This document shows positions 40,350 to 64,000 of a DNA stretch of 64,000 nucleotides, in pieces. A program made the position numbers and the translations under genes. The number at the start of each line of letters is the position of its first letter. Position 1 is the stretch's first letter. The stretch is taken from the NCBI RefSeq assembly GCF_030013205.1, contig NZ_CP122648.1, one strand, 5' to 3'. This DNA is from Escherichia coli. Its GTDB lineage: Bacteria; Pseudomonadota; Gammaproteobacteria; Enterobacterales; Enterobacteriaceae. The notes beneath the pieces were generated by a model. The model saw nothing but the letters and a program-made list of their open reading frames with translations. It searched no databases and was not told where the DNA came from.

Positions 40350-40427
40350 GTCTTTTGTACTCGTGTACTGGTACAGTGCGGTGCATAACAACGCAGTCGC
40401 ACTATTTTTCACTGGAGAGAAGCCCTC

Positions 40428-41672
40428 ATGGCAACACTAACCACCACCCAAACGTCACCGTCGCTGCTTGGCGGCGTGGTGATCATCGGCGGTACCATTA
40501 TTGGCGCAGGGATGTTTTCTCTGCCTGTGGTCATGTCCGGGGCGTGGTTCTTCTGGTCAATGGCGGCGCTGATCTTTACCTGGTTCTGTATGCTGCATTC
40601 CGGCTTGATGATTCTGGAAGCTAACCTGAATTATCGAATCGGTTCTAGCTTTGACACCATCACCAAAGATTTGCTGGGCAAAGGCTGGAACGTAGTCAAC
40701 GGCATTTCCATTGCCTTTGTGCTCTATATCCTGACTTACGCCTATATTTCTGCCAGCGGTTCGATTCTGCATCACACCTTCGCGGAGATGTCGCTGAACG
40801 TCCCTGCACGGGCAGCTGGATTTGGTTTTGCACTACTGGTGGCGTTTGTGGTGTGGTTGAGCACCAAAGCGGTCAGCCGGATGACGGCGATTGTGCTGGG
40901 GGCGAAAGTCATTACGTTTTTCCTCACCTTCGGTAGCCTGCTGGGACATGTGCAGCCTGCGACATTGTTCAACGTCGCCGAAAGCAATGCGTCTTATGCA
41001 CCGTATCTGCTGATGACGCTGCCATTCTGTCTGGCATCGTTTGGTTATCACGGTAACGTGCCGAGCCTGATGAAGTATTACGGCAAAGATCCGAAAACCA
41101 TCGTGAAATGCCTGGTGTACGGTACGCTGATGGCGCTGGCGCTGTATACCATCTGGTTGCTGGCGACGATGGGCAACATCCCTCGTCCGGAGTTTATCGG
41201 CATCGCCGAGAAGGGCGGTAATATTGATGTGCTGGTACAGGCATTAAGCGGCGTGCTGAACAGCCGTAGCCTGGACCTTCTGCTGGTCGTGTTCTCAAAC
41301 TTTGCGGTAGCAAGTTCGTTCCTCGGCGTAACGCTGGGTTTGTTTGACTATCTGGCAGATCTGTTTGGTTTTGACGACTCTGCCCTGGGCCGCTTTAAAA
41401 CGGCGTTGCTGACCTTTGCCCCGCCTGTTGTGGGTGGTCTGCTATTTCCGAACGGATTCCTGTATTCCATTGGTTATGCTGGCTTAGCAGCTACTATCTG
41501 GGCAGCAATTGTACCGGCGCTGTTGGCCCGCGCATCGCGTAAACGCTTTGGCAGCCCGAAATTCCGCGTCTGGGGCGGCAAGCCGATGATTGCGCTGATT
41601 CTGGTATTTGGCGTCGGCAACGCACTGGTGCATATTTTATCGAGCTTTAATTTGCTGCCGGTGTATCAGTAA
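40428..41672 (+). CDS. mtr: Tryptophan-specific permease
   Basis: 414 aa, 11-helix aromatic amino acid permease; translation recognised as Mtr. Confidence 0.95.
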
Positions 41673-41680
41673 TCAGCGGT

Positions 41681-43058
<1,378 letters not shown>

Positions 43059-43069
43059 GTTAAAACACA

Positions 43070-44077
43070 CTACCCCAATAATTCTTCCTTCACATCCATC
43101 ACCAGCTCAAACGAATGCAGGCGCGCCTGGTGATCGAAAATCTGCCCGTTAACCATAATCTCATCGGCGTCGGTTTCGCGCAGGATCGACTGCAAGCCGT
43201 GACGCACTTTCGCTTTATCACCCACCAGCGACATACTCAGCGCCTGCTGCACGCCATACTGCTCGGACGGTGACCAGAACTGATCCATATTTTGAATCGG
43301 CGGCGGCAGTTGCCCGGTTTCGCCACGGCGCAGCTTCACAAAGGCTTGCTGCATTGAGGTAAAGAGAAATTCAGCGTCGCGGTTGCTGTCGGCGGCGATA
43401 ATATTGATGCACACCATCGCATACGGTTTTTCCAGCCGTGCCGACGGTTTGAAGTTGCTGCGATAAAGATGCAGCGCCTGGAACAACATATCCGGCGCGA
43501 AGTGTGAGGCAAACGCAAACGGCAGACCAAGCTGCGCCGCCAATTGCGCGCTGTAAAGGCTGGAGCCTAACAACCACACGGGGATTTTCTCGCCATAGCC
43601 TGGTACCGGGCGCACATGCGGATTGGGATCGCGGGCGTCAAACCAGTCCACCAGCTCCGCGACATCGCGGGGAAAATTATCAATATCGCCGCTCATATGA
43701 CGACGTAGAGCCATCATGGTTCGCTGGTCACTACCCGGAGCACGACCCAGCCCCAAATCGATTCGCCCCGGATAGAGCGTATTAAGCGTGCCGAACTGTT
43801 CGGCGATCACCAATGGTGAGTGATTAGGCAACATCACGCCGCCAGACCCCAGATGCAGCGTAGTGGTATTCGCCGCCAGATAGCCAATCAAAACTGATGT
43901 TGCAGCACTGGCAATGCCGGTCATATTGTGGTGTTCCGCCAGCCAGTAGCGATGATAGCCGCGCTTTTCAGCCAGACGGGCGAGGTCGAGAGAGTGGGAG
44001 AACGCTTCTCGCGCTGAAGAACCTTCGGGAATGGGGGCCAGATCGAGTAGCGAAAACGCAATGGTTTTATCAGTCAT
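43070..44077 (-). CDS. yhbW: Luciferase-like (LLM class) flavin-dependent monooxygenase
   Basis: 335 aa ORF recognised as YhbW. Confidence 0.85.
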
Positions 44078-44080
44078 AAC

Positions 44081-44150
44081 AGCTCACTTTGTTACCGATT
44101 AATCTTTAATACTGCATTAAAGAGTAGTTAAAGTTGTTAACAAAGTGAGC
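44081..44150. promoter_or_regulatory. 16-bp inverted repeat in the ubiV-yhbW intergenic region
   Basis: AGCTCACTTTGTTACC (44081..44096) and GTTAACAAAGTGAGCT (44135..44150) match 15/16 as reverse complements, 38-bp AT-rich spacer. Confidence 0.4.
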
Positions 44151-48564: not shown

Positions 48565-49314
<750 letters not shown>

Positions 49315-49386
49315 TTATTCCCAAGAATTGATAGTGAGCGTAATATTCACGCGCTCAATTATCATAACTTATTCCTGGGGAATGCT

Positions 49387-50427
49387 ATGACTGGTCAGTC
49401 TTCATCTCAGGCGGCAACGCCCATTCAGTGGTGGAAACCCGCGCTTTTCTTTCTCGTTGTCATTGCTGGTCTCTGGTATGTGAAATGGCAACCTTACTAC
49501 GGCAAAGCGTTTACTGCTGCCGAAACCCACAGTATCGGTAAATCTATCCTTGCGCAGGCGGATGCTAATCCGTGGCAGGCGGCGTTGGATTACGCGATGA
49601 TCTATTTCCTCGCGGTATGGAAAGCGGCGGTGCTGGGGGTGATCCTCGGTTCGTTGATTCAGGTGCTGATCCCGCGTGACTGGTTGCTGCGTACGCTTGG
49701 GCAATCGCGCTTTCGCGGCACGCTGCTGGGAACGCTGTTTTCGCTGCCGGGTATGATGTGTACCTGCTGTGCGGCTCCGGTCGCGGCGGGAATGCGTCGC
49801 CAACAGGTATCGATGGGCGGGGCGCTGGCATTCTGGATGGGGAATCCGTTGTTAAACCCGGCGACGCTGGTGTTTATGGGGTTTGTCCTCGGCTGGGGCT
49901 TTGCCGCGATTCGTCTGGTGGCGGGGTTGGTGATGGTATTGCTGATTGCGACGCTGGTGCAAAATTGGGTGCGTGAAACACCGCAAACGCAGGCACCGGT
50001 CGAAATTGACATACCGGAAGCGCAGGGCGGATTTTTTAGCCGCTGGGGCAGGGCGCTATGGACGCTTTTCTGGAGTACGATCCCGGTTTACATCCTTGCA
50101 GTACTGGTGTTGGGTGCCGCTCGCGTCTGGTTATTCCCCCATGCCGATGGTGCTGTCGATAGCAGCCTGATGTGGGTGGTGGCGATGGCGGTGGCAGGAT
50201 GCTTGTTTGTCATTCCCACGGCAGCAGAAATTCCGATTGTGCAAACGATGATGCTGGCAGGCATGGGAACCGCTCCGGCGCTGGCATTGTTGATGACGCT
50301 CCCGGCGGTGAGTTTGCCGTCACTGATTATGCTGCGCAAAGCGTTCCCGGCGAAAGCCTTATGGCTGACAGGGGCGATGGTGGCAGTGTCTGGTGTGATT
50401 GTCGGCGGGCTGGCGCTGTTGGCCTAA
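49387..50427 (+). CDS. yraQ: Predicted permease (DUF318 family)
   Basis: 346 aa hydrophobic ORF. Confidence 0.85.
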   Translation: MTGQSSSQAATPIQWWKPALFFLVVIAGLWYVKWQPYYGKAFTAAETHSIGKSILAQADANPWQAALDYAMIYFLAVWKAAVLGVILGSLIQVLIPRDWLLRTLGQSRFRGTLLGTLFSLPGMMCTCCAAPVAAGMRRQQVSMGGALAFWMGNPLLNPATLVFMGFVLGWGFAAIRLVAGLVMVLLIATLVQNWVRETPQTQAPVEIDIPEAQGGFFSRWGRALWTLFWSTIPVYILAVLVLGAARVWLFPHADGAVDSSLMWVVAMAVAGCLFVIPTAAEIPIVQTMMLAGMGTAPALALLMTLPAVSLPSLIMLRKAFPAKALWLTGAMVAVSGVIVGGLALLA

Positions 50428-50469
50428 GATGTTGGATGCTCCTGAATACAGCACTGGACGGTCCCCTCT

Positions 50470-50512
50470 CCCCTTTGGGGAGAGGGTTAGGGTGAGGGGA
50501 ACAGGTCGGCTA
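50470..50512. repeat. GC-rich repeated extragenic element (boxC-like)
   Basis: CCCCTCTCCCCTTTGGGGAGAGGGTTAGGGTGAGGGGAA; hairpin-forming intergenic motif I recall as multicopy in E. coli. Confidence 0.5.
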
Positions 50513-50548
50513 AGGTGTGAATATTTACTTCAACGACCGATCAATGGC

Positions 50549-51124
50549 TTATTTAATAAACGTAAACGCTGTGGTTACCCGCTTCACGCCGCTTACCCGG
50601 CTGGCAATATCTGCCGCCGCTTTCGCTTCACGTTCAGTCACCAGCCCCATCAGGAACACTTCACCGTTTTCGGTGGTCACTTTCACGTTGGACGATTTCA
50701 CCAGGTCGCTGGTTAAGAGCTGCGAACGCACTTTGGTGGTGATCCACGTATCGTTAGACGCTTCGCCCAGACCAATCGGCTGGCCCTGACGAATCTCGTT
50801 ATACACTTCGTTGGCACCGTCTACGCCCATAGCAATCTGTTTGGCGCGAGCCGAAAGTTCAGCGTTTGGTGACTGCCCAACCAGCAGCACTTTGCCCTGA
50901 TAGGCCGTTACATTAATGCGCGCTTCTTTCTTAATCTGTTCGTCTTTCGACAATGCGCTGTTTACGCGCACTTCCAGGGTACCATCGTCCACCTGGGTGC
51001 CGACACTGCGTGGGTCAGTTGCGGCTTTGGTACCCACAGCAGCGGTACCCACTACGGCAGCGGCAACACAACCTTGCAACAGCAGCGCGGAAAGAAGGAC
51101 TGCGATTGGCGATAATGCCTTCAT
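50549..51124 (-). CDS. dolP: Outer membrane BON-domain lipoprotein
   Basis: 191 aa; lipobox LLQGC. Confidence 0.9.
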   Translation of the reverse strand: MKALSPIAVLLSALLLQGCVAAAVVGTAAVGTKAATDPRSVGTQVDDGTLEVRVNSALSKDEQIKKEARINVTAYQGKVLLVGQSPNAELSARAKQIAMGVDGANEVYNEIRQGQPIGLGEASNDTWITTKVRSQLLTSDLVKSSNVKVTTENGEVFLMGLVTEREAKAAADIASRVSGVKRVTTAFTFIK

Positions 51125-51133
51125 GTAATCTCC

Positions 51134-51724
51134 TTAAACATCCTGGTGAGGGAAAAGCGTGTTATCGATCAGATCGCACAGGCAATTTACCGTCAGCATA
51201 TGCATTTCCTGAATGCGAGCACTACGATGCGAAGGAATGCGGATCTCCACATCCTGTGGCCCTAACAAACCTGCAAGTTCACCGCCGTCATAGCCGGTTA
51301 ATGCCACAATGGTCATATCACGCGTAACGGCAGCTTCTACCGCTTTTACAATATCGCGGCTGTTGCCACGGGTGGAAATGGCTAACAATACATCTCCCGC
51401 ATGACCCAGCGCCCGCACCTGTTTTGCATACACTTCATCATGTAAGCGATCGTTGGCAATCGCCGTTAAGACAACATTATCAGTATTTAGTGCAATGGCA
51501 GGTAAGCTGGGCCGCTCCGTTTCGAAACGGTTAATCATACTGGCAGCAAAATGCTGTGCATTGGCAGCGGAAGTTCCATTACCACAACAGAGGATTTTGT
51601 TGCCATTGAGCAGAGACTGAACCAGCGTCATGGCTGCACGGGAGATGGCATCCGGAAGCGCCTCTGCCGCCGCAATTTGAGTTTGAATGCTTTCAGTGAA
51701 GCAAGCTTTAATTCTTTCTTGCAC
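51134..51724 (-). CDS. diaA: DnaA initiator-associating protein (SIS domain)
   Basis: 196 aa ORF recognised as DiaA. Confidence 0.9.
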
Positions 51725-51743
51725 GCTAATCCTTAAACCTTAA

Positions 51744-52139
51744 TTATGAGTGGTCATTAAAGGCATCCTTAATCCACTCAACCTCATTCCCGGTGAAGGC
51801 TACCACATCGAACCGGCAATCCACAGTATCAAAACTCCCATTATGACGCGCGAGCCACAAGCGGGCAGTCTGTAATAATTTGTGTTGTTTGCTGCGGGTC
51901 ACACTGGCTGCCGCGCCGCCATAAAGCGCAGAGCGGCGGTAACGCACCTCGACAAAAACGGTGATCCGGCCTTCACGCATTATCAGATCGATCTCGCCGC
52001 CACGCTCGTTCACGTTAGCGGCGATAAACCGCAGTCCTTTGCCTTCCAGCCAGCGACGCGCTTGTGCTTCCCACGCATCGCCGGTCTGTTTGGTGGTTAA
52101 CTGGCGGGGACTACCTGACCTTGTTGGTACTGTAGCCAT
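51744..52139 (-). CDS. yraN: UPF0102 family protein
   Basis: 131 aa ORF, conserved position. Confidence 0.85.
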
Positions 52140-54133
52140 GATAACTTCCTGTTAATCACGCAATCCGGGTTAGCCGTCAGGCTGCCGGTATTACCGTTGA
52201 TTTCAAAACCCTGAACCTGGCGCATTTGTGAGAAATGATTTGCCAACGACCAGGCATCGACGCCCATCGCATACATGCGAGCCAGCGAATAATCGTTGTT
52301 CACCGCACTGAGCGCCTGCTGCATTAACGGCAGATTACCGCCTGCCAGCATCGGGATTTCGCTGTACTGCAAGCCTTCCATCTCCAGTCGGAAATCCGGG
52401 CCAGCGGTCCCTTGCGCACTGCGGGAGCTGGCGTACAGCGTTGCACCGCTCTGGCTACCGTTACGCATGGCGATCATCGGTTTGATAAAAGCGATTTCAC
52501 CCGGCGTTGCCACAATGTACACCGCATCGACACGACCGCCATTATTGGTGAACTGGTCATCGGTTGGCGTGGTTTGCAGCGTTGGATTGTTGGTCGTCAT
52601 GCCGGAGTCGGTTGTCGCTCTGTGAGTAATCGGGCTACCCGTTAAAGCAATACCAGAACCGCCGTTAACACCCGCGCGTAATTCATTGGTGGAACCAAAT
52701 TTCTGCTGTAAAACCGTGCCGCCGCCCAGTTTCTGCCACTCCTGCGCAAACGCATTGGCTACGCGATCGCCCAATGAACTGCGTGGGATCAGCACCAGCG
52801 GCGCTTGTTTACCCTGGTCACGAATATGACGCGCTGCATCGCGCGCTTCGTCTTCTGGTGAAAGCGCGAAGTAACAAATATTGACGCGGTTTTCGATGTT
52901 CTCCGGCTGGTTCAGTGCCAGCACGTTCAGCGGGGTGTTGCTCTTCAGCAACTCTTCAACGTTATTTTTCAGCAACGGACCGACCACAATACTCGCGCCA
53001 TCCTGTTGAACCTGGCTTAAGATCTGGCTAAGTGGTTGTGATGATGTATCGTAGATTTTCAGCTCTGCGGATGGATTCGCAGGTGCGCTTACCGCTGCGG
53101 TGGTTGCCGCCGGGGCGCTTACAGGCACCGGCTGGGCCGCAGGTTGTTCACCGGTCAGATCGCTAACCGAGGCTTGTGCCGGGCTGGCAACGCCATCCAC
53201 GGTTTGCGGCTGAGGTTGTTCTGCTACGTCTGCGGCAGGTGCGGCAGCTACCTGAGCCGCCACTGGCTGAGTGCCGATATTTTTCGCCGCTTCAAAGCCT
53301 TGCTGAATAGTGCGACCAAATACCGCTGCCTGGCCATTCAGTGGCAAAAGCAGGGCGATTTTGTTGGTCGATGCGGGTTTAAACGCTTTTACGTTAACCA
53401 ACTGCGTTGGCAGCATTTTCGCGCCCGGGTTGTTCGGATAACGTTTCTGCCAGTCGGCGATCCCGGCTTTCATCATGTCGGGATCGTTACGGTTATCAAA
53501 CCAGATGCGCTGCAGATCCAACCAGCCTTGCAGAATATTTTCGTCGGCATTGATCACCAGCGTATTCGCCTGTTCCTGAGTCATGGAGGAGAGCGCCTGC
53601 CAGGTGGCGTCAATATTCTGCTGCTTTTCTTTCGCGCCGAGCAGCGGTTCCTGAGCAATTAACGCGCGCAGTAAATCAATGGAAGGACGCCCCTGGCTGG
53701 CATCGATTTTTGCCTGCCAGTAACGCGCTTGCTGGTTTTGTTCTAAATCTGCAGGTGTGATTTTCGCCAGCAAGTTTTGCGCGCCAGCAAAATCTTTCTG
53801 CGCCAGTTTAATCTCTGCCGCCAGCAGTGTTTTCTCGCGACGCTGAGAATCGTTCAGTTCTTGCGGTAGTTGGTTAAACAACTCCACCGCCTGTCCGGTT
53901 TTATCTTCTTTCACCAGTGCACGAATGGCGAGTAATTGCCAGTTGATCCTGGTATCATCAGAACTTTGCTGCATCTGTTGCAGGTAAAAGGCAGAATCAG
54001 CCTGCGCCGTGCCCTGCATATAAGCAGTGGACTGATCGGGAGTATGGGTGCCACAACCGGCGAAAATCAGGGCTGCCAGAACAACAGGCAGACAACGCGC
54101 GGCTTTCAAACGAGAAAATGTTGAGGGTACCAT
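52097..54133 (-). CDS. lpoA: Outer membrane lipoprotein activator of PBP1A
   Basis: ORF 52097..54163 trimmed to [10 protein letters not shown] (678 aa); lipobox FAGC. Confidence 0.9.
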
Positions 54134-54197
54134 AATGTATCCAGTGATATTTTTTTTACGCAATGCTCAATATTAAATCGGCAATACGGACGACACA

Positions 54198-55061
54198 ATG
54201 AAACAACACCAATCGGCGGATAATTCTCAGGGCCAGCTTTACATTGTACCGACGCCAATCGGCAATCTGGCGGATATCACCCAGCGTGCGTTGGAGGTAT
54301 TACAGGCCGTTGATCTGATTGCCGCCGAGGATACGCGTCACACCGGTTTATTGCTGCAACATTTTGGGATTAATGCTCGGTTGTTTGCGCTGCACGACCA
54401 TAACGAACAACAAAAAGCCGAAACGCTGCTGGCGAAGCTGCAAGAGGGGCAAAACATTGCGCTGGTTTCCGATGCCGGAACGCCGCTAATTAACGATCCT
54501 GGCTACCATCTGGTGCGTACCTGCCGTGAAGCGGGGATTCGCGTGGTGCCGCTACCCGGGCCGTGTGCTGCTATCACTGCGTTAAGCGCCGCGGGTTTAC
54601 CATCCGATCGTTTTTGTTATGAAGGCTTTTTACCTGCCAAATCAAAAGGCCGCCGTGATGCGCTAAAAGCCATTGAAGCGGAGCCGCGCACGCTGATTTT
54701 TTATGAATCTACCCACCGTCTGTTAGATAGCCTGGAAGATATCGTTGCGGTATTAGGCGAATCCCGCTACGTCGTTCTGGCGCGTGAGCTGACCAAAACC
54801 TGGGAAACCATTCACGGCGCGCCCGTTGGCGAGCTGCTGGCGTGGGTCAAAGAAGATGAAAACCGTCGCAAAGGCGAAATGGTACTGATTGTCGAAGGCC
54901 ATAAAGCACAGGAAGAAGACTTACCCGCCGATGCCCTGCGCACGCTGGCGCTGCTACAGGCAGAACTGCCACTGAAAAAAGCGGCGGCGCTGGCAGCAGA
55001 AATTCACGGCGTGAAGAAAAATGCGCTGTATAAGTATGCACTGGAGCAGCAGGGAGAGTGA
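54198..55061 (+). CDS. rsmI: 16S rRNA C1402 2'-O-methyltransferase
   Basis: 287 aa ORF recognised as RsmI. Confidence 0.9.
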
Positions 55062-55110
55062 TTACAGGCGTCGCAGCAGGAATAGCGCTACAACGCCTTT
55101 ACCTGGCGAG

Positions 55111-55878
55111 TTAACGACGACACATTTCATCAATCACGCATGTGAAATGGTTATGCAGCCATAAAAACGAAGCTGGGATAGCGGTGGAGACTTTAGCCGT
55201 GAGAAAACGTTCTGTCGCATCCTGCTTTCCTTCGCCAGTCACCAGTAACAAAACTTCGCGGGCATTGAGAATATCCTTCAGGCCTAAGGTGATCCCACGA
55301 GTCACGGGACGGCCCGCGGTTTTTAACATCTCATGTTGCTGTGTTCTGGCATCAAGTTGACTGATATGGCAGGCCGGTTGCAGGTTTTCTCCCGGTTCGT
55401 TCAGCCCAAGATGACCGTTTTTCCCCAATCCGAGAACGCATAAATCCAGACCGCCTTTGCGCGCAATCAGGTTCGTTACCCGTTCGCACTCTGTCTCATT
55501 TATCTCTTCGGAGCGAAAGCTGATGAGTTGGTCTTCACGTAGCCCCAGCGGCTGCACGATATGCTGTTGCAGGAAAGTTTCGCAGGTGCCAGGCATCGTT
55601 AATGGCAGATCCACCCATTCGTCGAGCTTCACGAAGGTGAGCTGGCTGACATCAACCTGCTGCTGGTGGATTTTTTCTACCAGATAATGATACGTCAGTA
55701 ATGGCGTGGCTCCGGTCGCCAGGCAAATCACGGCATCCGGTTTGCTACGGATCACGGCCAATAAATATTCGCTGGCACGTTCACTTAACGCCGTATAGTT
55801 TTCAACTTGTTGAAGGGTTTGCACAGGATGAAATTCCTTAAGTAAAGAGGCACCGCCAGACGCGGTGCCTCGTTCCAT
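55111..55878 (-). CDS. agaI: Putative galactosamine-6-phosphate deaminase/isomerase
   Basis: 255 aa NagB-like ORF; exact start uncertain. Confidence 0.8.
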   Translation of the reverse strand: MERGTASGGASLLKEFHPVQTLQQVENYTALSERASEYLLAVIRSKPDAVICLATGATPLLTYHYLVEKIHQQQVDVSQLTFVKLDEWVDLPLTMPGTCETFLQQHIVQPLGLREDQLISFRSEEINETECERVTNLIARKGGLDLCVLGLGKNGHLGLNEPGENLQPACHISQLDARTQQHEMLKTAGRPVTRGITLGLKDILNAREVLLLVTGEGKQDATERFLTAKVSTAIPASFLWLHNHFTCVIDEMCRR

Positions 55879-56670
55879 TTACAAAATGCCGAATGCAGAA
55901 CAAACAATAGAAAGAACAAACGTCACGCCGATTAACAGCACCGGATGCGCTTTTTTCACCCGCAGGAAGTAATACATCAGCAGGGTGTAGGCCATCGGTA
56001 AAATATTCGGGAAGACTTTATCGAAGAAATCCTGCTGCAGCGCGACGCTGTGGGTACTGTCGATGGCAAACGATGTCACCACGTTAATATGCACATACGA
56101 AGCGATCAGCCCGCCGATTACCGTGATCCCGAGGATGGTTGCCGAACGAGCAATCATCTGCGAGTTCTCTCGCACTTTATCGATCGCCTTCACGCCGACT
56201 GAATAACCGACGTGGGTCCAGCCGACGCGCAGGAAGAAGATAAGCAGGTAAACGGCGAAAAATAGAATCGGCCCCAGCAAGTTTCCCTGGCTGGCAAATG
56301 ATGAGCAAATTCCCGCCATAATCGGCAATAAGGTAAACCAGAAAATCGCATCGCCAATCCCGGCGATTGGGCCAAACAGTGCCACTTTGAGGCCTTTAAT
56401 GGTGTCGCGGTTTTCTCCTTTTTCTTCCATCGAAATTAATAACCCTATCAGGAATCCGACCAGATTCGGGTGGGTATTAATAAATTCGAGGTTATCTTTC
56501 ATCGCCGCGCTTAGGCCCGGTTTGTCGTCCTTATAAATCTTTTTCAGGCTCGGCAACATCGCCCAGGTAAAACCGCCCGCCTGCATCCTTTCGTAGTTAA
56601 AGCTCGCTTGCAGCAGTGACGAACGAAAGCCCAGACGGGTGATATCTTTTTTACTGATTTCAGATCCCAT
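55879..56670 (-). CDS. agaD: PTS galactosamine-specific IID component
   Basis: ORF 55879..56817 trimmed to MGSEISKKDITRL (263 aa). Confidence 0.85.
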   Translation of the reverse strand: MGSEISKKDITRLGFRSSLLQASFNYERMQAGGFTWAMLPSLKKIYKDDKPGLSAAMKDNLEFINTHPNLVGFLIGLLISMEEKGENRDTIKGLKVALFGPIAGIGDAIFWFTLLPIMAGICSSFASQGNLLGPILFFAVYLLIFFLRVGWTHVGYSVGVKAIDKVRENSQMIARSATILGITVIGGLIASYVHINVVTSFAIDSTHSVALQQDFFDKVFPNILPMAYTLLMYYFLRVKKAHPVLLIGVTFVLSIVCSAFGIL

Positions 56671-57463
56671 TGCTGTAGTCCTCTTCTTCATTTTTACTGG
56701 CAACGGGCTGCGGTTGCGCTTGCTGCCGGGATTTCGCATTGAAAAACTCATACACCGCAAAGCCTGCGCCCAGTACGGCAACCGGCAACAGGTTGCTGAC
56801 CTGGATGTAGCAAACAAACAGGAAACCGGCGATCAGGTAAGGGATATATTGCGCTTTGAACATTACGCGCAGCAGCAAGCCAAAACCAACGGCAGGCAGA
56901 ATACCGCCAGCCACTTCAAAGCCGTGGGTCAGCCAGGCGGGCATCGCTTTCACCAGCGCCTGCATCGCCCCTTGTGCCAGGTAAGTACAGAGGAAAGCAA
57001 TCACCGCATACGCTGAAGCAACGATGAGCATCGTTGTCCAGTTAAGTCGGGAAAACGCTGCCGTATCCGCTTCTTTCGCGCATTTATCGGCTTTGGTCAT
57101 AAATAATGAGAAAGCAGAATAGAAGAACAGAATGACGTACTGCATTAACAAACTAAACGGCAGGCCAAGACCAATTGCCGTTTTGGCATCAACGCCCGTA
57201 GACCATGCAATGACGGTGGTCATCAGACCCGCCATAATCGGGTTGGGCGGCTGAACACCACCTGCAGGGGTTAATCCGGCGAAAGCCAACTCTGTCAGAC
57301 CACCGGTAATTAAGCCAGTCTGAATATCACCGAGAATAGCGCCAGTTAGGGTACAAACGATTATCGGGCGGAATAAAAATAAGGCTTCCAGCCAAAAATC
57401 AATCCCCAGAAAGAAAACTAACGCCGCCAGGGATAATCCCTGGAGTAGGGTTATTTCATGCAT
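56660..57463 (-). CDS. agaC: PTS galactosamine-specific IIC component
   Basis: 267 aa hydrophobic ORF. Confidence 0.85.
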   Translation of the reverse strand: MHEITLLQGLSLAALVFFLGIDFWLEALFLFRPIIVCTLTGAILGDIQTGLITGGLTELAFAGLTPAGGVQPPNPIMAGLMTTVIAWSTGVDAKTAIGLGLPFSLLMQYVILFFYSAFSLFMTKADKCAKEADTAAFSRLNWTTMLIVASAYAVIAFLCTYLAQGAMQALVKAMPAWLTHGFEVAGGILPAVGFGLLLRVMFKAQYIPYLIAGFLFVCYIQVSNLLPVAVLGAGFAVYEFFNAKSRQQAQPQPVASKNEEEDYSNGI

Positions 57464-57501
57464 TTTTATTACCTCAAACCAATATTAAGGCGATTTTAGA
57501 T

Positions 57502-57978
57502 TTAGTCAGGGATTTGTTCTTTTTGATCGCCAGGGACGTCCTGAATGAAAACATTCACGCCACGTTGTTTAATAAAACGTAAGTCCGTGAGATCCTGGTC
57601 ATCGACATAAACTTTACTGCTGATTTGCTTTTTCCCTTCCGAGAAATGCATATTGCCGACGTTGACATCTTTCAGGTCAATGCCACCTTCTACCAATTTA
57701 CGTACCGTTTGTGGCGTACGGCAAATCAGGAAGATCTTTTGATGCGGTGCAGCTTTGCCGATGACATTAATGGTTTTTTCGATAGTAAAGAAACGAATGC
57801 CAAAGCCGTAGGTTTCCGCGGTAATACCCATTAATTTCTGTTGAATATCATCGTTAGCGACAACATCATCCACGACTACCAGCAGATTTGCACCGATGGT
57901 AGATGTCCAGGTCACGCCAACCTGACCGTGAACCAGACGGTTATCAATACGGGTTAAGAGAATATTTGGACTGCTCAT
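57502..57978 (-). CDS. agaB: PTS galactosamine-specific IIB component
   Basis: 158 aa mannose-family IIB ORF. Confidence 0.85.
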   Translation of the reverse strand: MSSPNILLTRIDNRLVHGQVGVTWTSTIGANLLVVVDDVVANDDIQQKLMGITAETYGFGIRFFTIEKTINVIGKAAPHQKIFLICRTPQTVRKLVEGGIDLKDVNVGNMHFSEGKKQISSKVYVDDQDLTDLRFIKQRGVNVFIQDVPGDQKEQIPD

Positions 57979-58144
57979 TGTGTAATCCTCACCATAAAGT
58001 TGAATAATATAATTTTTTTAAATATATTATTGTTGCGATATTGTACTGATGTATTTATTAAGGTTTAGTTATCTCCTTTACCATTAAGGCACTCCCCGAT
58101 ATTAATCGGGAAGTACATTGGGATAAATCATAAAAAACTAATGA

Positions 58145-59017
<873 letters not shown>

Positions 59018-60172
59018 TTATGCCTGCCACGGATGAATGATTACGCCTTGCACCACGCGGTTAACGGTGCCGCTGGCTGATGGGGTATCCGGCGTATTGC
59101 CCATGTGCAGCGACTGCATAAGTGCAAACGTCTGGGCGTACATCAGGAAGCAAAATGCCTGCTCAACGTCGATAAAGTGACGGGACGGCGGCAGGATAAT
59201 ATGTGGACCGGCAGCAACGATGTCTGTGCTTTCCGCGGCGATGGCGATTACGCGCATTGCCTGGTTATCGCGGCGAAGTTCAGCCAGTAGATCAAGATCA
59301 TACTGACGGGTGTAAGGGTGGCTGGAGACAAATACCACCACCAGCGTTTCGTTATCGACCAGCGATTTCGGGCCATGACGGAATCCGGTCGGGGAATCAT
59401 AAAAGGCCGCCAGTTTACCCGCCGTCAGTTCCAGTACTTTCAGCGCCGACTCGCGTGCTGCGCCCTGTAAGCCACCGCTGCCGAGATAAACGATCCGTTT
59501 CCACGGTGCGTAACCAAACACACCTTCGCTGAAATCGCCCAGTGAGGTCAGGATCGCCTGGCAACGATCCGCCACGTCGCGGAAGCTCTGGCTGTTGATC
59601 GTCTCAGGTGCGAAAACCGCGAGGCAGCTGGCCATCATGGTGGTAATGCTGCTGGTCATCGCAAAGCCGCGATCGTGCGTTTCTGCGGGCATCAGTAGGG
59701 CAAACGCGTTGTCGCTGTTGATCGCGTTTTGGTAAAGAGCGCCCGCTTCGTTGCAGGTGATCGGCAGGTGATAGCACTCGGGTACAAATTGATTTGCCAG
59801 TTCCACGGCGGCGACGCTTTCCGGGCTGTTGCCGGATCGACCGAAGGAGATCAACAGCAGTGGATGAGTTGGATTCAGGTAGTCCATCGGATTGGTGACC
59901 AGATCGGTGGTCGGTACGGCGCTGAAGTTTTTACCGGTATGGCTGGCGAGCCACGGCGCGATAATGTCACCGATAAATGCCGAGGTTCCGGCTCCGGTCA
60001 GGATTACCCGCAGATTCTCTTTGCGCAGTAACGGTTCAAGGAAGTTATTGAGCGCGGAACGTAGTGCGTCGATGTTGGTGAGTGAACGGATCCATGCGCG
60101 AGGCTGATGGCGGATCTCTTCTTCAGTCCATGTACCGGTTGCGGCAGCAGCAGGGGGGTAATTTTCTGGCAT
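59018..60172 (-). CDS. agaS: SIS-domain putative galactosamine-6-phosphate deaminase
   Basis: 384 aa ORF recognised as AgaS. Confidence 0.85.
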   Translation of the reverse strand: MPENYPPAAAATGTWTEEEIRHQPRAWIRSLTNIDALRSALNNFLEPLLRKENLRVILTGAGTSAFIGDIIAPWLASHTGKNFSAVPTTDLVTNPMDYLNPTHPLLLISFGRSGNSPESVAAVELANQFVPECYHLPITCNEAGALYQNAINSDNAFALLMPAETHDRGFAMTSSITTMMASCLAVFAPETINSQSFRDVADRCQAILTSLGDFSEGVFGYAPWKRIVYLGSGGLQGAARESALKVLELTAGKLAAFYDSPTGFRHGPKSLVDNETLVVVFVSSHPYTRQYDLDLLAELRRDNQAMRVIAIAAESTDIVAAGPHIILPPSRHFIDVEQAFCFLMYAQTFALMQSLHMGNTPDTPSASGTVNRVVQGVIIHPWQA

Positions 60173-60393
60173 AACTCAATCCTTAGTCTGATGAACTTGA
60201 CGTCGGGCGTTGTCGCTTTCGCTTACCTTTCGTTTCATTTCACTTGGTGATGTCTTTCGTTGATTAAAATCTATAGAAAAGAAACTGAAAGTTCAATGGA
60301 GAAAAAAGAAATAAAACGAAATTTGTGATCGTTGAAAGAAAAGACAAGGGAAGATTAAAGGATTGCGTGATAACGTCGCTATGTTCACCGATT

Positions 60394-60446
60394 GCCGGAT
60401 GCGGCGTACCGTAGGTCGGATCAGACGCGTTAGCGTCGCATCCGAC
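60394..60446. repeat. REP elements in the agaS-agaA intergenic region
   Basis: GCCGGATGCGGCGTA and GTAGGTCGGATCAGACGCGTTAGCGTCGCATCCGAC. Confidence 0.65.
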
Positions 60447-60522
60447 ACCGCTGCACAGATCAAAAAGAAAGAAAAAGAAAGGCCTTACGGGGGAAGTGAA
60501 GGCCCAATAATGGAGCAAACCA

Positions 60523-61656
60523 TCAAAACGAAGCTAATTGACCCTGAATCCAGATTTGTTGCACATGTAGCCCGCTATCCAGCGCAACGACGCTGGCGCG
60601 TTTGCCCGGTTTAAGCGATCCCAGAACACCATCAACACCCAGCATTCGCGCCGGATGCAGCGACGCCATATGGATGGCTTCCGCAGGCGTTACGCCCGTT
60701 AACTCGACCATGTTGCGCACTGCTGCATCGACAGATAGCGTACTGCCCGCCAGCCCACCGGACGCGGTACGGACAACGCCACCGTGCATCTGCACTTCTT
60801 CGCCACATAACGTATAGCGACCATCCGGCATCCCAGCTGCCTGCATCGCGTCGGTGATCAGTACGATTCTCTCTTTCGCACAGCAACAACACAGCGACAT
60901 CGCCGCCGGATGCACATGATGACCATCGGCTATCAGTTCCAGCCAGGCGCGCTTGTCCGTTAATCCCGCGCCAACCATTCCCGGTTCGCGGTGATGTAAA
61001 CCTGTCATCCCGTTATAGCAATGCACCAGGCCGTCGGCACCAGCATCAAATGCGGCGCGGGTTTGTTGCCAGGTCGCCGCGCTATGCCCCAGCATCACCC
61101 TTACGTTTTGCTGTTTAAGATGGCGGATGGCCTGCAATGCCCCTTCTTTTTCCGGTGCCAGCGCTACCACGCGTAAGGTGTGCTGAGAAACGGCAATCAA
61201 TTGATCCAGCTCGGCAATTTCCAGCTCGCGAAACAGCTCCGGTGGATGCGCGCCTTTATTCTGCGGCGTGAAGTACGGTCCTTCGAGATAACTCCCCAGC
61301 ACTTGCGCACCAGGTCCGCCGCGTTGGCAACGTTGAGCAATACGTTTCAGCGCCGCATGAATGGTATTAAGCGGCGCGGTTACGGTGGTCGGTAACCAAC
61401 TGCCGACACCTTCGCATGCCTTGTGCATTGCCAGCTTGTCGAGTACATCCGGCGCGTCATCCATTACATCAACGCCCGCACCACCGTGTACATGGGTGTC
61501 GATGTAAGCGGGGCAGAGCAGTTCCGCATCGCGTTCAGTCACGCCCACTGGAATCGGTTCGATTGCTGCGATGACACCGTCAGCAATACGCAACTGATGG
61601 TCATCGAGCCATCCCTCTTCAGTTAGCAGCCTTCTGGCGCGCAGAACGGGTGTCAT
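60523..61656 (-). CDS. agaA: N-acetylgalactosamine-6-phosphate deacetylase, full length
   Basis: ORF 60523..61677 trimmed to MTPVLRARRLL (377 aa); NagA-like metal-binding residues. Confidence 0.85.
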   Translation of the reverse strand: MTPVLRARRLLTEEGWLDDHQLRIADGVIAAIEPIPVGVTERDAELLCPAYIDTHVHGGAGVDVMDDAPDVLDKLAMHKACEGVGSWLPTTVTAPLNTIHAALKRIAQRCQRGGPGAQVLGSYLEGPYFTPQNKGAHPPELFRELEIAELDQLIAVSQHTLRVVALAPEKEGALQAIRHLKQQNVRVMLGHSAATWQQTRAAFDAGADGLVHCYNGMTGLHHREPGMVGAGLTDKRAWLELIADGHHVHPAAMSLCCCCAKERIVLITDAMQAAGMPDGRYTLCGEEVQMHGGVVRTASGGLAGSTLSVDAAVRNMVELTGVTPAEAIHMASLHPARMLGVDGVLGSLKPGKRASVVALDSGLHVQQIWIQGQLASF

Positions 61657-62087
61657 ATTCCTTCCTCGACCGGACATTCTTCATGGCAGCGGCCTAACTC
61701 GTCCACCAGACTGGTCAGCCCACGGTGTCCACACTCCAGCGCCTGCACACGGAATTCTTCACCGATTAACCCTTCGCGCTCCAGCACCATCTCCAGTAGC
61801 AGTTGTAAATTGGTGCCTGTAATCACTTCACAGCCCGGTTTTTGCATCGCCAGCGTTGAAGCTACGCGAAACGGCGTGCCGCCCAGCAAATCCGTCAGAA
61901 AAACAATGCCGTCTTCACAATCCAGTTGGGCGATGGCCTCTTCAAGCTGCGATGTAAGCAGCGCGGTGCTTGAGGTTTCCGGAAAATCGATGGCGATAAA
62001 CTGCGATTGCTCGCCGAGGATTTGCTTCATTGCTTTTTCCATGCCACTGGCAAACCCGCCATGCCCTGTCAAAATAATACTTAACAT
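61653..62087 (-). CDS. agaF: PTS N-acetylgalactosamine-specific IIA component
   Basis: 144 aa mannose-family IIA ORF. Confidence 0.85.
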   Translation of the reverse strand: MLSIILTGHGGFASGMEKAMKQILGEQSQFIAIDFPETSSTALLTSQLEEAIAQLDCEDGIVFLTDLLGGTPFRVASTLAMQKPGCEVITGTNLQLLLEMVLEREGLIGEEFRVQALECGHRGLTSLVDELGRCHEECPVEEGI

Positions 62088-62104
62088 CTAATACCTCATT
62101 GTAT

Positions 62105-62989
62105 TTAAAGGAAATGGCAGAATTTACCGACGATGCCGAGAACCACGGTCACTGCAATCAGGCGCAGCGGACTCCAGCCGCGGCGTACCAGCCAGAACAT
62201 GGTCAGGGTGTAGACCAGCGGTAAGAAGGCAGGCATCAGTTTGTCGATAACATCAGCCTGTAACTTAACCACTGCGTCGCCCGCTGTGATTTCCAGCGTG
62301 GTGCTTAAACGAACATAGGTTGCCACCAGCGCGCCGATTACCGTCATCCCAACGATAGACGCAGCATGGCCGACTTTTTTGGTATTCGCTTTAATGAGTG
62401 GAATCGCCGCCACGCCCATGCGGTAAGCATAATGCGCCAGACCAAAACGCAGCCCCAGGTGTACCACGTTGAACAGCACAATAAAGACGACTGCGCCAAG
62501 AATAGAGCCTTGTAGCGCGAGGCTTGCGCCTATCCCACCACAAATCGGCAGTAGCGTCAGCCAGAACATTGCATCGCCAATCCCGCCAAGTGGCGCACCG
62601 ACGGCAATTTTGGTGCTCTGAATACTGTTAACGTCCTGCTTAGAACGCTCCATCGCAAGGATAATGCCGATAACAAACGTCACCAGAAACGGATGGGTAT
62701 TGAAGAAACCCATATGCCCCTTCATGGCGCGCGCCAGGTCGCGTTTATTAGTGTGGATCTTTTTCAGAGCAGGCAGCAGACCGTACAACCAGCTAGAAGC
62801 CTGCATACGTTCGTAGTTAAAAGACGCTTGTAACAGCATGGAACGCCAGGCGACGCGGTTGATATCTTTTTTCGTCAGCTCTGCGCCAATGCTCTGATCT
62901 TCATACACGTTTTCATTGACGCCTGTCAGCAGTGTTTCTTCGTTTTCACTGACGTTCGGCAGGGTGGTTTGATTAGATGCCATCTTCAA
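62105..62989 (-). CDS. agaE: PTS N-acetylgalactosamine-specific IID component
   Basis: 294 aa ORF paralogous to agaD; exact start uncertain. Confidence 0.8.
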   Translation of the reverse strand: MKMASNQTTLPNVSENEETLLTGVNENVYEDQSIGAELTKKDINRVAWRSMLLQASFNYERMQASSWLYGLLPALKKIHTNKRDLARAMKGHMGFFNTHPFLVTFVIGIILAMERSKQDVNSIQSTKIAVGAPLGGIGDAMFWLTLLPICGGIGASLALQGSILGAVVFIVLFNVVHLGLRFGLAHYAYRMGVAAIPLIKANTKKVGHAASIVGMTVIGALVATYVRLSTTLEITAGDAVVKLQADVIDKLMPAFLPLVYTLTMFWLVRRGWSPLRLIAVTVVLGIVGKFCHFL

Positions 62990-63752
62990 ATTCCTCTTTC
63001 TGTGCCGCAGGTTGAGTCGGTTCAGGAGATTTACGCAGCAGGTCGATCAGCGCCATCGCCAGCGCGGCGGCAGCAATAGCCAGCACCGGTAACTTGAGCC
63101 AGGCTGCGGCAACAAAGCCCAGGATGAAGTAGGGGATGTAGACGTTTTTCATCATGATTTTCAGCAGCACGGCAAAACCGATTGCTGGCATGATGCCGCC
63201 CGCGACGCCGAGGCCGTCGATTAATCGTTGCGGCAGGACATCAATGATGGTTTTGGCATGTTCTGCGCCGAAGTAGATAGGCAGGAAAGCGCAGAGAAAA
63301 TAGAAAGTGCCGAGTGCCAGCAGTGCCAGATAGTTCACGCGTTCAATGCCGCGTGTATCGGCGTTCTCCGCCATCCGGTCGCAGCGAGACATCACGCCAG
63401 ACATCACCGAGAACAGGAAGGTAATCCCCATCTGTACTGCGACAGCGAAAGGTACGGCGACACCGACCGCGACATCGGGTTTCACGCCAGTAGTAATGGC
63501 AAACGCCGTGCCGACGATAGTACCGATAATCACGTTAGGCGGTTGTGCGCCTGCCAGCGGGGCCAGCCCCATCCACACCAGTTCCAGCGTACCGCCGGTT
63601 AAAATACCGGTATGCAGATCGCCAAGTACCAGTCCGACCAACGGGCCGAGGACCACCGGGCGGTGCATATGGGTTAGGCCGTTAAACATATCCAGGCCAG
63701 CGATAAAGGCGATAATGCCCAACGCGAATGCCTGCAACAGACTGATTTCCAT
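62973..63752 (-). CDS. agaW: PTS N-acetylgalactosamine-specific IIC component, full length
   Basis: 259 aa hydrophobic ORF paralogous to agaC. Confidence 0.85.
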   Translation of the reverse strand: MEISLLQAFALGIIAFIAGLDMFNGLTHMHRPVVLGPLVGLVLGDLHTGILTGGTLELVWMGLAPLAGAQPPNVIIGTIVGTAFAITTGVKPDVAVGVAVPFAVAVQMGITFLFSVMSGVMSRCDRMAENADTRGIERVNYLALLALGTFYFLCAFLPIYFGAEHAKTIIDVLPQRLIDGLGVAGGIMPAIGFAVLLKIMMKNVYIPYFILGFVAAAWLKLPVLAIAAAALAMALIDLLRKSPEPTQPAAQKEEFEDGI

Positions 63753-63762
63753 GATGAATCCC

Positions 63763-64000
63763 TCAAAGTAATTTAAAGAGGTCCACTGCAGGCTCTGTCG
63801 GGACGCCCTGAACGAAGCATTCCACCCCAGCGGCTTTCAGGTCGTTAAATGCTGCAATATCGCCCGCATCTACAGAAACCGTTTTGGCGATTTGTTGCTT
63901 GCCATTGGCGTAGTGCATATTGCCAACGTTAATGCGATTCACCGGAACGCCACCTTTCACCAGCGTCAGGAAATCGGCAGGTGTTTTACAAACCAGCAGG
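63763..64000 (-). CDS. agaV: PTS N-acetylgalactosamine-specific IIB component, C-terminal part; 5' end beyond the window
   Basis: Translation similar to agaB; reading frame stays open to the window edge. Confidence 0.75.
   Translation of the reverse strand, partial: LLVCKTPADFLTLVKGGVPVNRINVGNMHYANGKQQIAKTVSVDAGDIAAFNDLKAAGVECFVQGVPTEPAVDLFKLL

Follow-up and report, generated by a model that had tools for sequence, protein, structure and literature searches.

The window analyzed here, a stretch of 64,000 nt from Escherichia coli, ends in a locus (55111-64000) that is very probably the ancestral, undeleted version of the chromosomal aga/gam regulon and that belongs to a porcine enterotoxigenic (ETEC) strain close to the O139:H1 edema-disease strains. 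All aga genes of this part lie on the minus strand in the order, from 64000 downwards, agaV(part)-agaW-agaE-agaF-agaA-agaS-kbaY-agaB-agaC-agaD-agaI (Table 1). None of the named aga/kba ORFs contained an internal stop.

Gene Content of the Locus and Relatives of the Strain

The first-pass annotation had described intact ORFs from a partial agaV to agaI, with 377 aa for AgaA and 259 aa for AgaW. All genes were indeed present in this order and both proteins were full length. The cluster had also been called complete. Ten whole genes and a part of agaV are in the window, which ends at position 64000 before the first half of agaV, the P_Z promoter, and two of the 13 genes of the regulon, kbaZ and agaR, are reached. 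Since kbaZ and agaR are located past this position, the window by itself does not show completeness.

Table 1. Positions of the aga/kba genes and related features in the window.
Feature	Position	Strand	Description
agaV, 3' part only	63763-64000	-	PTS IIB for GalNAc; C-terminal 78 of 157 aa; gene cut by the window end
agaW	62973-63752	-	259 aa; PTS IIC for GalNAc; NF040757 410.8 bits, cut-off 300
agaE	62105-62983	-	292 aa; PTS IID for GalNAc; NF040760 614.8, cut-off 500; carries G64S
agaF	61653-62087	-	144 aa; PTS IIA common to both transporters; Gly91 kept; lineage substitution S108I
agaA	60523-61656	-	377 aa; GalNAc-6-P deacetylase; full length; PGAP label nagA
agaA-agaS spacer	60173-60522	-	350 bp; expected P_S promoter region
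agaS	59018-60172	-	384 aa; GalN-6-P deaminase/isomerase
kbaY	58145-59005	-	286 aa; catalytic subunit of tagatose-1,6-bisphosphate aldolase; A111D
agaB	57502-57978	-	158 aa; PTS IIB for galactosamine
agaC	56660-57463	-	267 aa; PTS IIC for galactosamine; codon 8 is CAG
agaD	55879-56670	-	263 aa; PTS IID for galactosamine; agaE paralogue (45% identity)
agaI	55111-55878	-	255 aa; NagB-like protein; codon 72 is CAG
Segment missing in K-12	61072-63376	.	2,305 bp; alignment to MG1655

The Belgian pig ETEC isolate ETEC4079 (NZ_CP122643.1) was 100% identical to positions 1-50000 and 49111-64000, i.e., to all 64 kb. All 13 genes of the cluster are annotated in its record, among them agaV, kbaZ, and agaR, and these three are intact. 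The arrangement of kbaZ and the divergently transcribed agaR upstream of agaV is found in ETEC4079 and also in the near-identical O139:H1 strain W13-16. Over positions 54000-64000, W13-16 shows just two SNPs relative to the window, and one of them falls in the codon for AgaE residue 64. As judged from its sequence, the strain is a porcine enterotoxigenic E. coli with O139:H1 edema-disease strains as close relatives, and its near-identity to these suggests that ETEC4079 belongs to ST1 and phylogroup D.

For nine of the ten whole proteins, the score was above the curated cut-off of the corresponding NCBIfam model: AgaI, AgaD, AgaC, AgaB, KbaY, AgaF, AgaE, and AgaW matched their own equivalogs and AgaS matched the AgaS family model. 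AgaA has no NCBIfam model of its own; its match is TIGR00221, the equivalog of the NagA deacetylase, and PGAP names the gene nagA for this reason. The mechanically called agaA ORF starts at an upstream ATG and would encode 384 instead of 377 aa. Apart from short chance matches, a repeat search revealed nothing but the agaD/agaE paralogy, which was expected (spacing, 6,220 bp), and Rfam returned no structured RNA at the gathering threshold for positions 54900-64000.

The synteny of the cluster was the same as in ATCC 8739, CFT073, EC4115, and other strains, and the AgaW protein is identical to that of the three strains named. The aga/gam regulon of E. coli C was reportedly described by Brinkkotter et al. 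in 2000. The regulon of E. coli C and ATCC 8739, treated by Hu et al. 2013 (PMC3668189), shares with the window the genes, their order and orientation, the 350-bp agaA-agaS spacer, and the chromosomal neighborhood on the agaR side. The proteins are 0-7 residues apart from those of ATCC 8739, except for the C-terminus of AgaI. In contrast to E. coli C and ATCC 8739, agaI directly abuts rsmI in the window, yraHIJK is absent, and AgaI has 255 instead of 251 aa. Its final ~13 residues are unlike those of K-12 AgaI, because the junction lacking the yra genes falls within the 3' end of agaI. Further differences to E. coli C and ATCC 8739 are AgaE G64S and a few lineage-specific substitutions, namely AgaD I41S and M75I, KbaY A111D, AgaF S108I, AgaA H3P and R81C, and AgaS T6P, A102T, T196S, and S316T.

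The K-12 Deletion and the Non-K-12 Status of the Strain

Alignment to MG1655 revealed that K-12 lacks the 2,305-bp segment listed in Table 1, and the agaW'-agaA' deletion junction of K-12 was not found in the window. A 6-bp direct repeat, GCGACC, occurs at both borders of the segment (61072-61077 and 63377-63382). With this segment, K-12 has lost agaE and agaF entirely, two thirds of agaW at the 3' side, and half of agaA at the 5' side. In MG1655 and in the K-12 derivative MFDpir, agaW and agaA are annotated as pseudogenes, and agaE and agaF are missing. The same 2.3-kb deletion was described by Hu et al. 2013, and K-12 is Aga- Gam- (PMC3668189). The first-pass annotation had named a K-12 deletion with loss of agaE and agaF and truncation of agaW and agaA. 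The MG1655 alignment, the MFDpir annotation, and the published description all show that this is correct.

Presence/absence polymorphism alone gives no direction, and the agaWEFA segment could also be read as a horizontally acquired insertion in this lineage instead of a deletion in K-12. However, across the species, 4,944 of 5,426 complete genomes carried the segment at this site. The K-12-type junction was found in 371 genomes, and the best 40 of these 371 records were all 100% identical and look like laboratory K-12 derivatives. Furthermore, the truncated agaW' and agaA' frames of K-12 meet at a 6-bp direct repeat, the hallmark of a deletion. An insertion is refuted by the distribution of the segment and the direct-repeat junction, and we consider it extremely improbable.

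The conclusion that the DNA belongs to a non-K-12 lineage, which had already been drawn from the first reading, was confirmed by several features besides the missing deletion. The aga DNA common to the window and MG1655 showed 97.7% identity. The 5.5-kb yraHIJK operon, which adjoins agaI in K-12, is missing from the window. An IS621 copy is present in the mtr-yhbW spacer, which is free of IS621 in MG1655; the flanks of this site have 94.5-95.8% identity to MG1655, and K-12 carries 0 copies of IS621 (PMC3032704). A K-12 derivative with an aga cluster repaired by recombination or transduction would share the synteny, but nothing more speaks for it. It is refuted by the alignments, namely by the identity values of the aga DNA and of the IS621 flanks, and the missing yraHIJK, the presence of IS621, and the identity of all 64 kb to ETEC4079 also stand against it, leaving it a vanishingly small probability. 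The window is not K-12. The intact cluster by itself excludes K-12, but it is the norm for the species and weak evidence about lineage, because most complete genomes carry the segment.

Operator Motifs and the Expected Promoter in the agaA-agaS Spacer

The core of the AgaR operator, TTTCRTTTYRTTTY, had only two exact matches in the window, at 60228-60241 on the plus strand and at 60308-60321 on the minus strand, both within the agaA-agaS spacer. This spacer also harbors a REP-like palindrome (~60393-60450). In the 20.9-kb locus, 7 matches to the core motif were counted versus 0.31 expected, and all were located in the agaA-agaS or the agaR-kbaZ spacer. The agaR-kbaZ spacer contains five of them (four exact, one with one mismatch). 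The operator consensus used for this search reportedly stems from Ray and Larson 2004, and its clustering alone was tested. AgaR acts at agaS (PMC5018945).

A scan for the sigma-70 consensus yielded 3 sites versus 7.5 expected and none on the operon strand, neither in the agaA-agaS spacer nor elsewhere. Since no operon-strand site was obtained, the predicted promoter P_S, which is expected in this spacer, was placed by homology with the K-12 literature and by the operator motifs.

Mutations Known from O157:H7 and Other Substitutions

The O157:H7 strains EDL933, Sakai, and EC4115 have the same undeleted 13-gene layout. They differ from the window by amber codons at agaC codon 8 and agaI codon 72, and EC4115 additionally by AgaF G91S. 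At all three positions of these inactivating mutations (AgaF G91S, agaC Q8am, and agaI Q72am) the window is wild type. EC4115 served as a positive control and showed all three lesions.

The private changes in the cluster comprised 33 synonymous and 11 nonsynonymous substitutions. The resulting private-branch pN/pS of 0.107, compared to 0.046-0.096 in five other strains, gave no sign of relaxed selection, and incipient decay of the cluster was rejected. At the position of KbaY A111D, the solved KbaY homologue 8q57 likewise has Asp. AgaE has Ile at the position of AgaD M75I, and homologues have Ala at the position of AgaD I41S. AgaF S108I affects a variable position. The four AgaS substitutions are new in comparison to six reference strains and fall either in the N-terminal tail or where conservation is low. 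Where an alignment with solved homologues or the paralogue exists, the substitutions absent from the six reference strains, other than AgaE G64S, look tolerable.

AgaE Carries an Unusual Substitution in a Conserved Motif

Codon 64 of agaE is AGC (62792-62794), while it is GGC in O139:H1 W13-16. The segment reads YERMQASSW and thus deviates from the conserved motif [YF]ERMQxxGW by Ser in place of Gly. Within this motif, Gly was present in 120/120 of the best homologue cluster representatives, although these share 83-99% identity and many come from Aeromonas, and among such close relatives invariance is less telling than in a deep alignment. In all six IID chains with solved structures, among them E. 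coli ManZ (6k1h; Gly41), the equivalent position is Gly too, as it is in the paralogue AgaD of the same window, and residue 64 is Gly in AgaE of the five other E. coli strains compared. The exact 81-nt haplotype with G64S was found in only 7 of 5,426 complete genomes, all of them swine ETEC. Like ETEC4079, strains K_EC180 and ETEC1748 carry Ser64.

Otherwise, AgaE is a full-length IID protein (PF03613) with a match above the cut-off. It aligned to solved IID structures (ManZ 6k1h; 7vlx, 7xno, 8hfs) along the Core and V-motif regions with E = 1e-48 to 1e-51 and likewise has the N-Y-E-R-M-Q motif. Three residues past this motif the solved structures have Gly, whereas AgaE of this strain has Ser. 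By these matches, we regard AgaE as a family member with an unusual substitution and not as a non-member.

It is possible, though unlikely, that the GalNAc branch is impaired despite the intact ORFs, with G64S damaging the IID protein and resulting in a strain that is Aga-negative or slow but Gam-positive. The invariance of the Gly would fit such an effect, as would the limited distribution of the allele and its being one of only two SNPs that separate positions 54000-64000 from W13-16; G64S would then be a recent change in a small swine ETEC subclade. Two published mutations also argue for an effect. In PtnD of L. lactis, the exchange N28K, which corresponds to AgaE N56 in the same motif, eight residues before position 64, abolishes mannose uptake, and N28 adjoins the sugar pocket (PMC10783117). 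In AgaF, a single Gly-to-Ser change is known to abolish GalNAc use, and O157:H7 spinach-outbreak isolates are Aga-negative through this G91S exchange (PMC3668189). On the other hand, Gly to Ser is a small change, and two SNPs make no statistical case for selection. The seven sequenced isolates in which the allele is fixed belong to a successful pathogen clone, but this says nothing either way. That a small swine ETEC clade recently gained G64S and thereby lost or altered GalNAc uptake with all reading frames open is a slightly more doubtful proposition still.

Predicted Pathway and Phenotype

The roles of the proteins were taken from the genetics of E. coli C and O157:H7 (PMC3668189). According to this scheme, GalNAc would enter and be phosphorylated by the mannose-family PTS composed of AgaV (IIB), AgaW (IIC), and AgaE (IID), and galactosamine would enter via AgaB, AgaC, and AgaD, with AgaF as the IIA component for both transporters. 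GalNAc-6-P would be deacetylated by AgaA, which NagA should be able to replace. AgaS would then convert GalN-6-P to tagatose-6-P by deamination and isomerization, a step that is essential according to Hu 2013 (PMC3668189). Tagatose-6-P would be phosphorylated by PfkA, the gene for which is located elsewhere, and KbaY together with KbaZ, encoded just beyond the window, would cleave tagatose-1,6-bisphosphate to DHAP and glyceraldehyde-3-P. AgaI is dispensable for growth on GalNAc or galactosamine (PMC3668189). The DeoR-type repressor AgaR, whose gene also lies beyond the window, would keep the kbaZ and agaS promoters shut until the inducer appears.

From the gene content it is plausible that this pathway runs in the strain and that N-acetylgalactosamine can be used, as the first-pass annotation had proposed, although AgaE G64S clouds the latter. 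The strain is likely to be Gam+, and the balance is tilted only somewhat towards Aga+; these estimates take AgaE G64S into account. A search of the literature on GalNAc phenotypes of porcine ETEC or EDEC yielded nothing relevant.

Significance

Neither the intact aga/gam cluster and its pathway nor the K-12 deletion is new: publications on them date back to 2000, and their annotation is routine. Roughly nine in ten E. coli genomes contain an intact cluster, which is useful only as a quick marker for non-K-12 strains. For specialists, AgaE G64S, found in seven genomes of swine ETEC, may be the one point of interest. This substitution is a reminder that a strain with intact ORFs may still lack the phenotype, for which AgaF G91S in O157:H7 had already provided an example. 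If G64S does affect GalNAc uptake, it would be the second natural case, after AgaF G91S of the O157:H7 spinach-outbreak isolates, in which a pathogenic clone lost GalNAc use by a silent point mutation. Luminal GalNAc in the pig gut is said, in a bioRxiv study (10.1101/2020.07.16.206219), to vary with the ABO genotype of the host, and it is in this environment that the substitution could then matter.

Gene content of the aga region

Positions 55111-64000 formed a single co-directional gene block on the minus strand. Gene calls were taken from the RefSeq annotation of an identical record, and each gene was re-translated from the window. All genes from the partial agaV to agaI were intact ORFs with no internal stop, as the first-pass annotation had described, and its lengths for AgaA and AgaW were exact. 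Its term "complete" goes further than the window does, which stops at base 64000 before the 5' half of agaV, kbaZ and agaR.

Features of the aga region and of the other loci compared with K-12 (window coordinates)
Feature	Position	Strand	Remark
agaV (partial)	63763-64000	-	last 78 of 157 aa
agaW	62973-63752	-	259 aa
agaE	62105-62983	-	292 aa
agaF	61653-62087	-	144 aa
agaA	60523-61656	-	377 aa
agaS	59018-60172	-	384 aa
kbaY	58145-59005	-	286 aa
agaB	57502-57978	-	158 aa
agaC	56660-57463	-	267 aa
agaD	55879-56670	-	263 aa
agaI	55111-55878	-	255 aa
rsmI	54198-55061		convergent with agaI
IS621 copy (IS110 family)	41744-43016		mtr-yhbW spacer
IS621 transposase ORF	41932-42912	+	

Nine of the 10 complete proteins exceeded the curated cut-off of their own NCBIfam equivalog or, in the case of AgaS, of its family model. 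No dedicated model exists for AgaA; its match is to the NagA deacetylase equivalog, hence the name "nagA" given to agaA by PGAP. Due to an in-frame ATG upstream, the mechanical ORF of agaA has 384 aa. AgaE and AgaD share 45% identity, and the paralogy of the two transporters is seen as DNA repeats at 6,220 bp spacing.

Comparison to K-12

BLAST of the window against MG1655 resulted in two collinear blocks (97.6-97.7% identity) separated by a gap. Reading of the junction revealed an MG1655 deletion of 2,305 bp, equivalent to 61072-63376 and flanked by two GCGACC copies (61072-61077 and 63377-63382). In MG1655 and the K-12 derivative MFDpir, agaW and agaA are annotated as pseudogenes, and agaE and agaF are missing. 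A "2.3 Kb deletion" renders K-12 unable to grow on N-acetylgalactosamine (GalNAc) and galactosamine (Aga- Gam-; PMC3668189), and the K-12 aga deletion of Archer et al. 2011 (PMC3032704) agrees with the mapped junction. The loss of agaE and agaF with truncation of agaW and agaA in K-12, as stated in the first-pass annotation, was confirmed.

Both arrangements were looked for in a set of 5,426 complete E. coli genomes. The K-12-type junction was found at full length in 371 genomes, and the best 40 of these records were all 100% identical and look like laboratory K-12 derivatives. The segment deleted in K-12 was present in 4,944 genomes (about 91%). The undeleted cluster is therefore the normal state of E. 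coli, though it rules out K-12. One record named 'DH5alpha' (NZ_CM135829.1, 4.83 Mb) carries the full undeleted cluster at 98.0% identity, while NZ_CP025520.1, a genuine DH5alpha record, shows the junction of K-12. The former is probably mislabelled, a small caveat on counts by strain name.

Two further differences supported the earlier statement that the strain is not K-12. Between agaI and rsmI, the 5.5-kb yraHIJK fimbrial operon of K-12 is replaced by 99 bp in the window (55055-55153), and the mtr-yhbW spacer contains an IS621 copy that MG1655 lacks at this site. K-12 is also listed with zero IS621 copies (PMC3032704).

The 99 bases are unrelated sequence; ATCC 8739 and O157:H7 have the yraHIJK operon as well. 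The yra-less junction falls within both convergent genes: AgaI ends in ...CVIDEMCRR (255 aa) versus ...CLINT (251 aa), and RsmI is one residue longer. This junction occurs in 1,821 of the 5,426 genomes, CFT073 among them. At the IS621 site, the gap together with an 8-bp overlap fits an element of ~1.28 kb. The identical insertion site is shared by swine ETEC and O139:H1 genomes, and IS621-like sequence was found in 2,881/5,426 genomes (median 2 copies). The flanks on the mtr side (40400-41743, 94.5% identity) and the yhbW side (43017-44100, 95.8%) are clearly more divergent from MG1655 than other parts of the window, with 97.7% for the aga region and 98.2% for rsmI-lpoA; this segment may be recombined or fast-evolving.

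Relatives of the strain

The chromosome of ETEC4079 (pig faeces, Belgium; NZ_CP122643.1) was 100% identical over 1-50000 and 49111-64000, and thus over the whole window; agaV, kbaZ and agaR are intact in that record. Across the cluster, 19 records had at least 99% identity, and the next-best unrelated genomes reached 98.6% at most. The edema disease strain O139:H1 W13-16 differed from 54000-64000 by only 2 SNPs. O139:H1 ST1 isolates were typed as phylogroup D (PMC11052496), and we infer that the strain belongs to this group. Both differences from W13-16 in these 10,001 bp are nonsynonymous and within aga genes (agaE G64S at 62794, agaS T6P at 60157), a number too small to support any statistical claim.

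Pathway and regulation

GalNAc is taken up and phosphorylated by AgaVWE with AgaF (PMC3668189, Hu et al. 2013, and papers cited there), galactosamine by AgaBCD with AgaF. AgaA, replaceable by NagA, is the GalNAc-6-P deacetylase; the essential AgaS, not the dispensable AgaI, is the GalN-6-P deaminase/isomerase; and KbaY with KbaZ cleaves tagatose-1,6-bisphosphate (all PMC3668189). AgaR represses the promoters preceding kbaZ, agaR and agaS (PMC5018945). This account is established genetics from the literature rather than a result on the window.

Exact matches to TTTCRTTTYRTTTY, which we take to be the AgaR operator core, occurred only twice in the 64-kb window, both in the 350-bp agaA-agaS spacer. 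With up to one mismatch, seven were found in the 20.9-kb ETEC4079 locus versus 0.31 expected; the agaA-agaS spacer accounted for two and the agaR-kbaZ spacer for five. The matches in the agaA-agaS spacer are consistent with AgaR control, given this putative core.

By eye, a REP-like element was recognised in the same spacer (~60393-60450, minus strand), situated between the stop codon of agaA and the operator region of agaS: GTCGGATGCGACGC...GCGTCTGATCCGAC, which forms an imperfect palindrome, with ...GCCGCATCCGGCA after it. The 166-bp kbaY-agaB spacer (57979-58144), which lies within genes described as a single operon, is very A+T-rich and had no Rfam match. A hairpin of 10 perfectly matched base pairs, eight of them G-C, around a 5-nt loop (55847-55871) falls in agaI codons 1-10, directly past the agaD stop; its exact sequence is present in CFT073 and not in MG1655. 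The NCBIfam AgaI model begins only at residue 17. The hairpin could stabilise the mRNA or act in attenuation, or the true agaI start could be further downstream.

Intactness of the cluster and the AgaE G64S substitution

The three natural inactivating mutations of O157:H7 (AgaF G91S, agaC codon 8 amber, agaI codon 72 amber) were all absent from the window and all detected in the control strain EC4115. Compared to five other strains, 33 synonymous and 11 nonsynonymous changes were private to the window (pN/pS 0.107). The five strains gave 0.046-0.096 under the same treatment, and we therefore saw no sign of decay of the cluster.

Most private substitutions affected positions variable among homologues or introduced a residue already used by them. 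The exception was G64S in AgaE (AGC versus GGC), the PTS IID subunit of the GalNAc transporter. Gly64 comes after an N-Y-E-R-M-Q motif and is glycine in 120/120 best AgaE homologue representatives, in all six solved IID chains (E. coli ManZ included), in AgaD, and in the five other E. coli strains. Even the near-identical W13-16 has glycine there, and the exact G64S haplotype occurred in only seven complete genomes, all swine ETEC. In Lactococcus PtnD, a changed Asn of the same motif adjoins the sugar pocket, and mannose uptake was lost (PMC10783117). A defect is not proven, yet GalNAc use should not be presumed. We slightly favor an Aga+ phenotype, and a Gam+ phenotype is quite likely.

The aga cluster is a textbook, previously annotated catabolic cluster and as such already known; its sole loose end meriting bench work is AgaE G64S.
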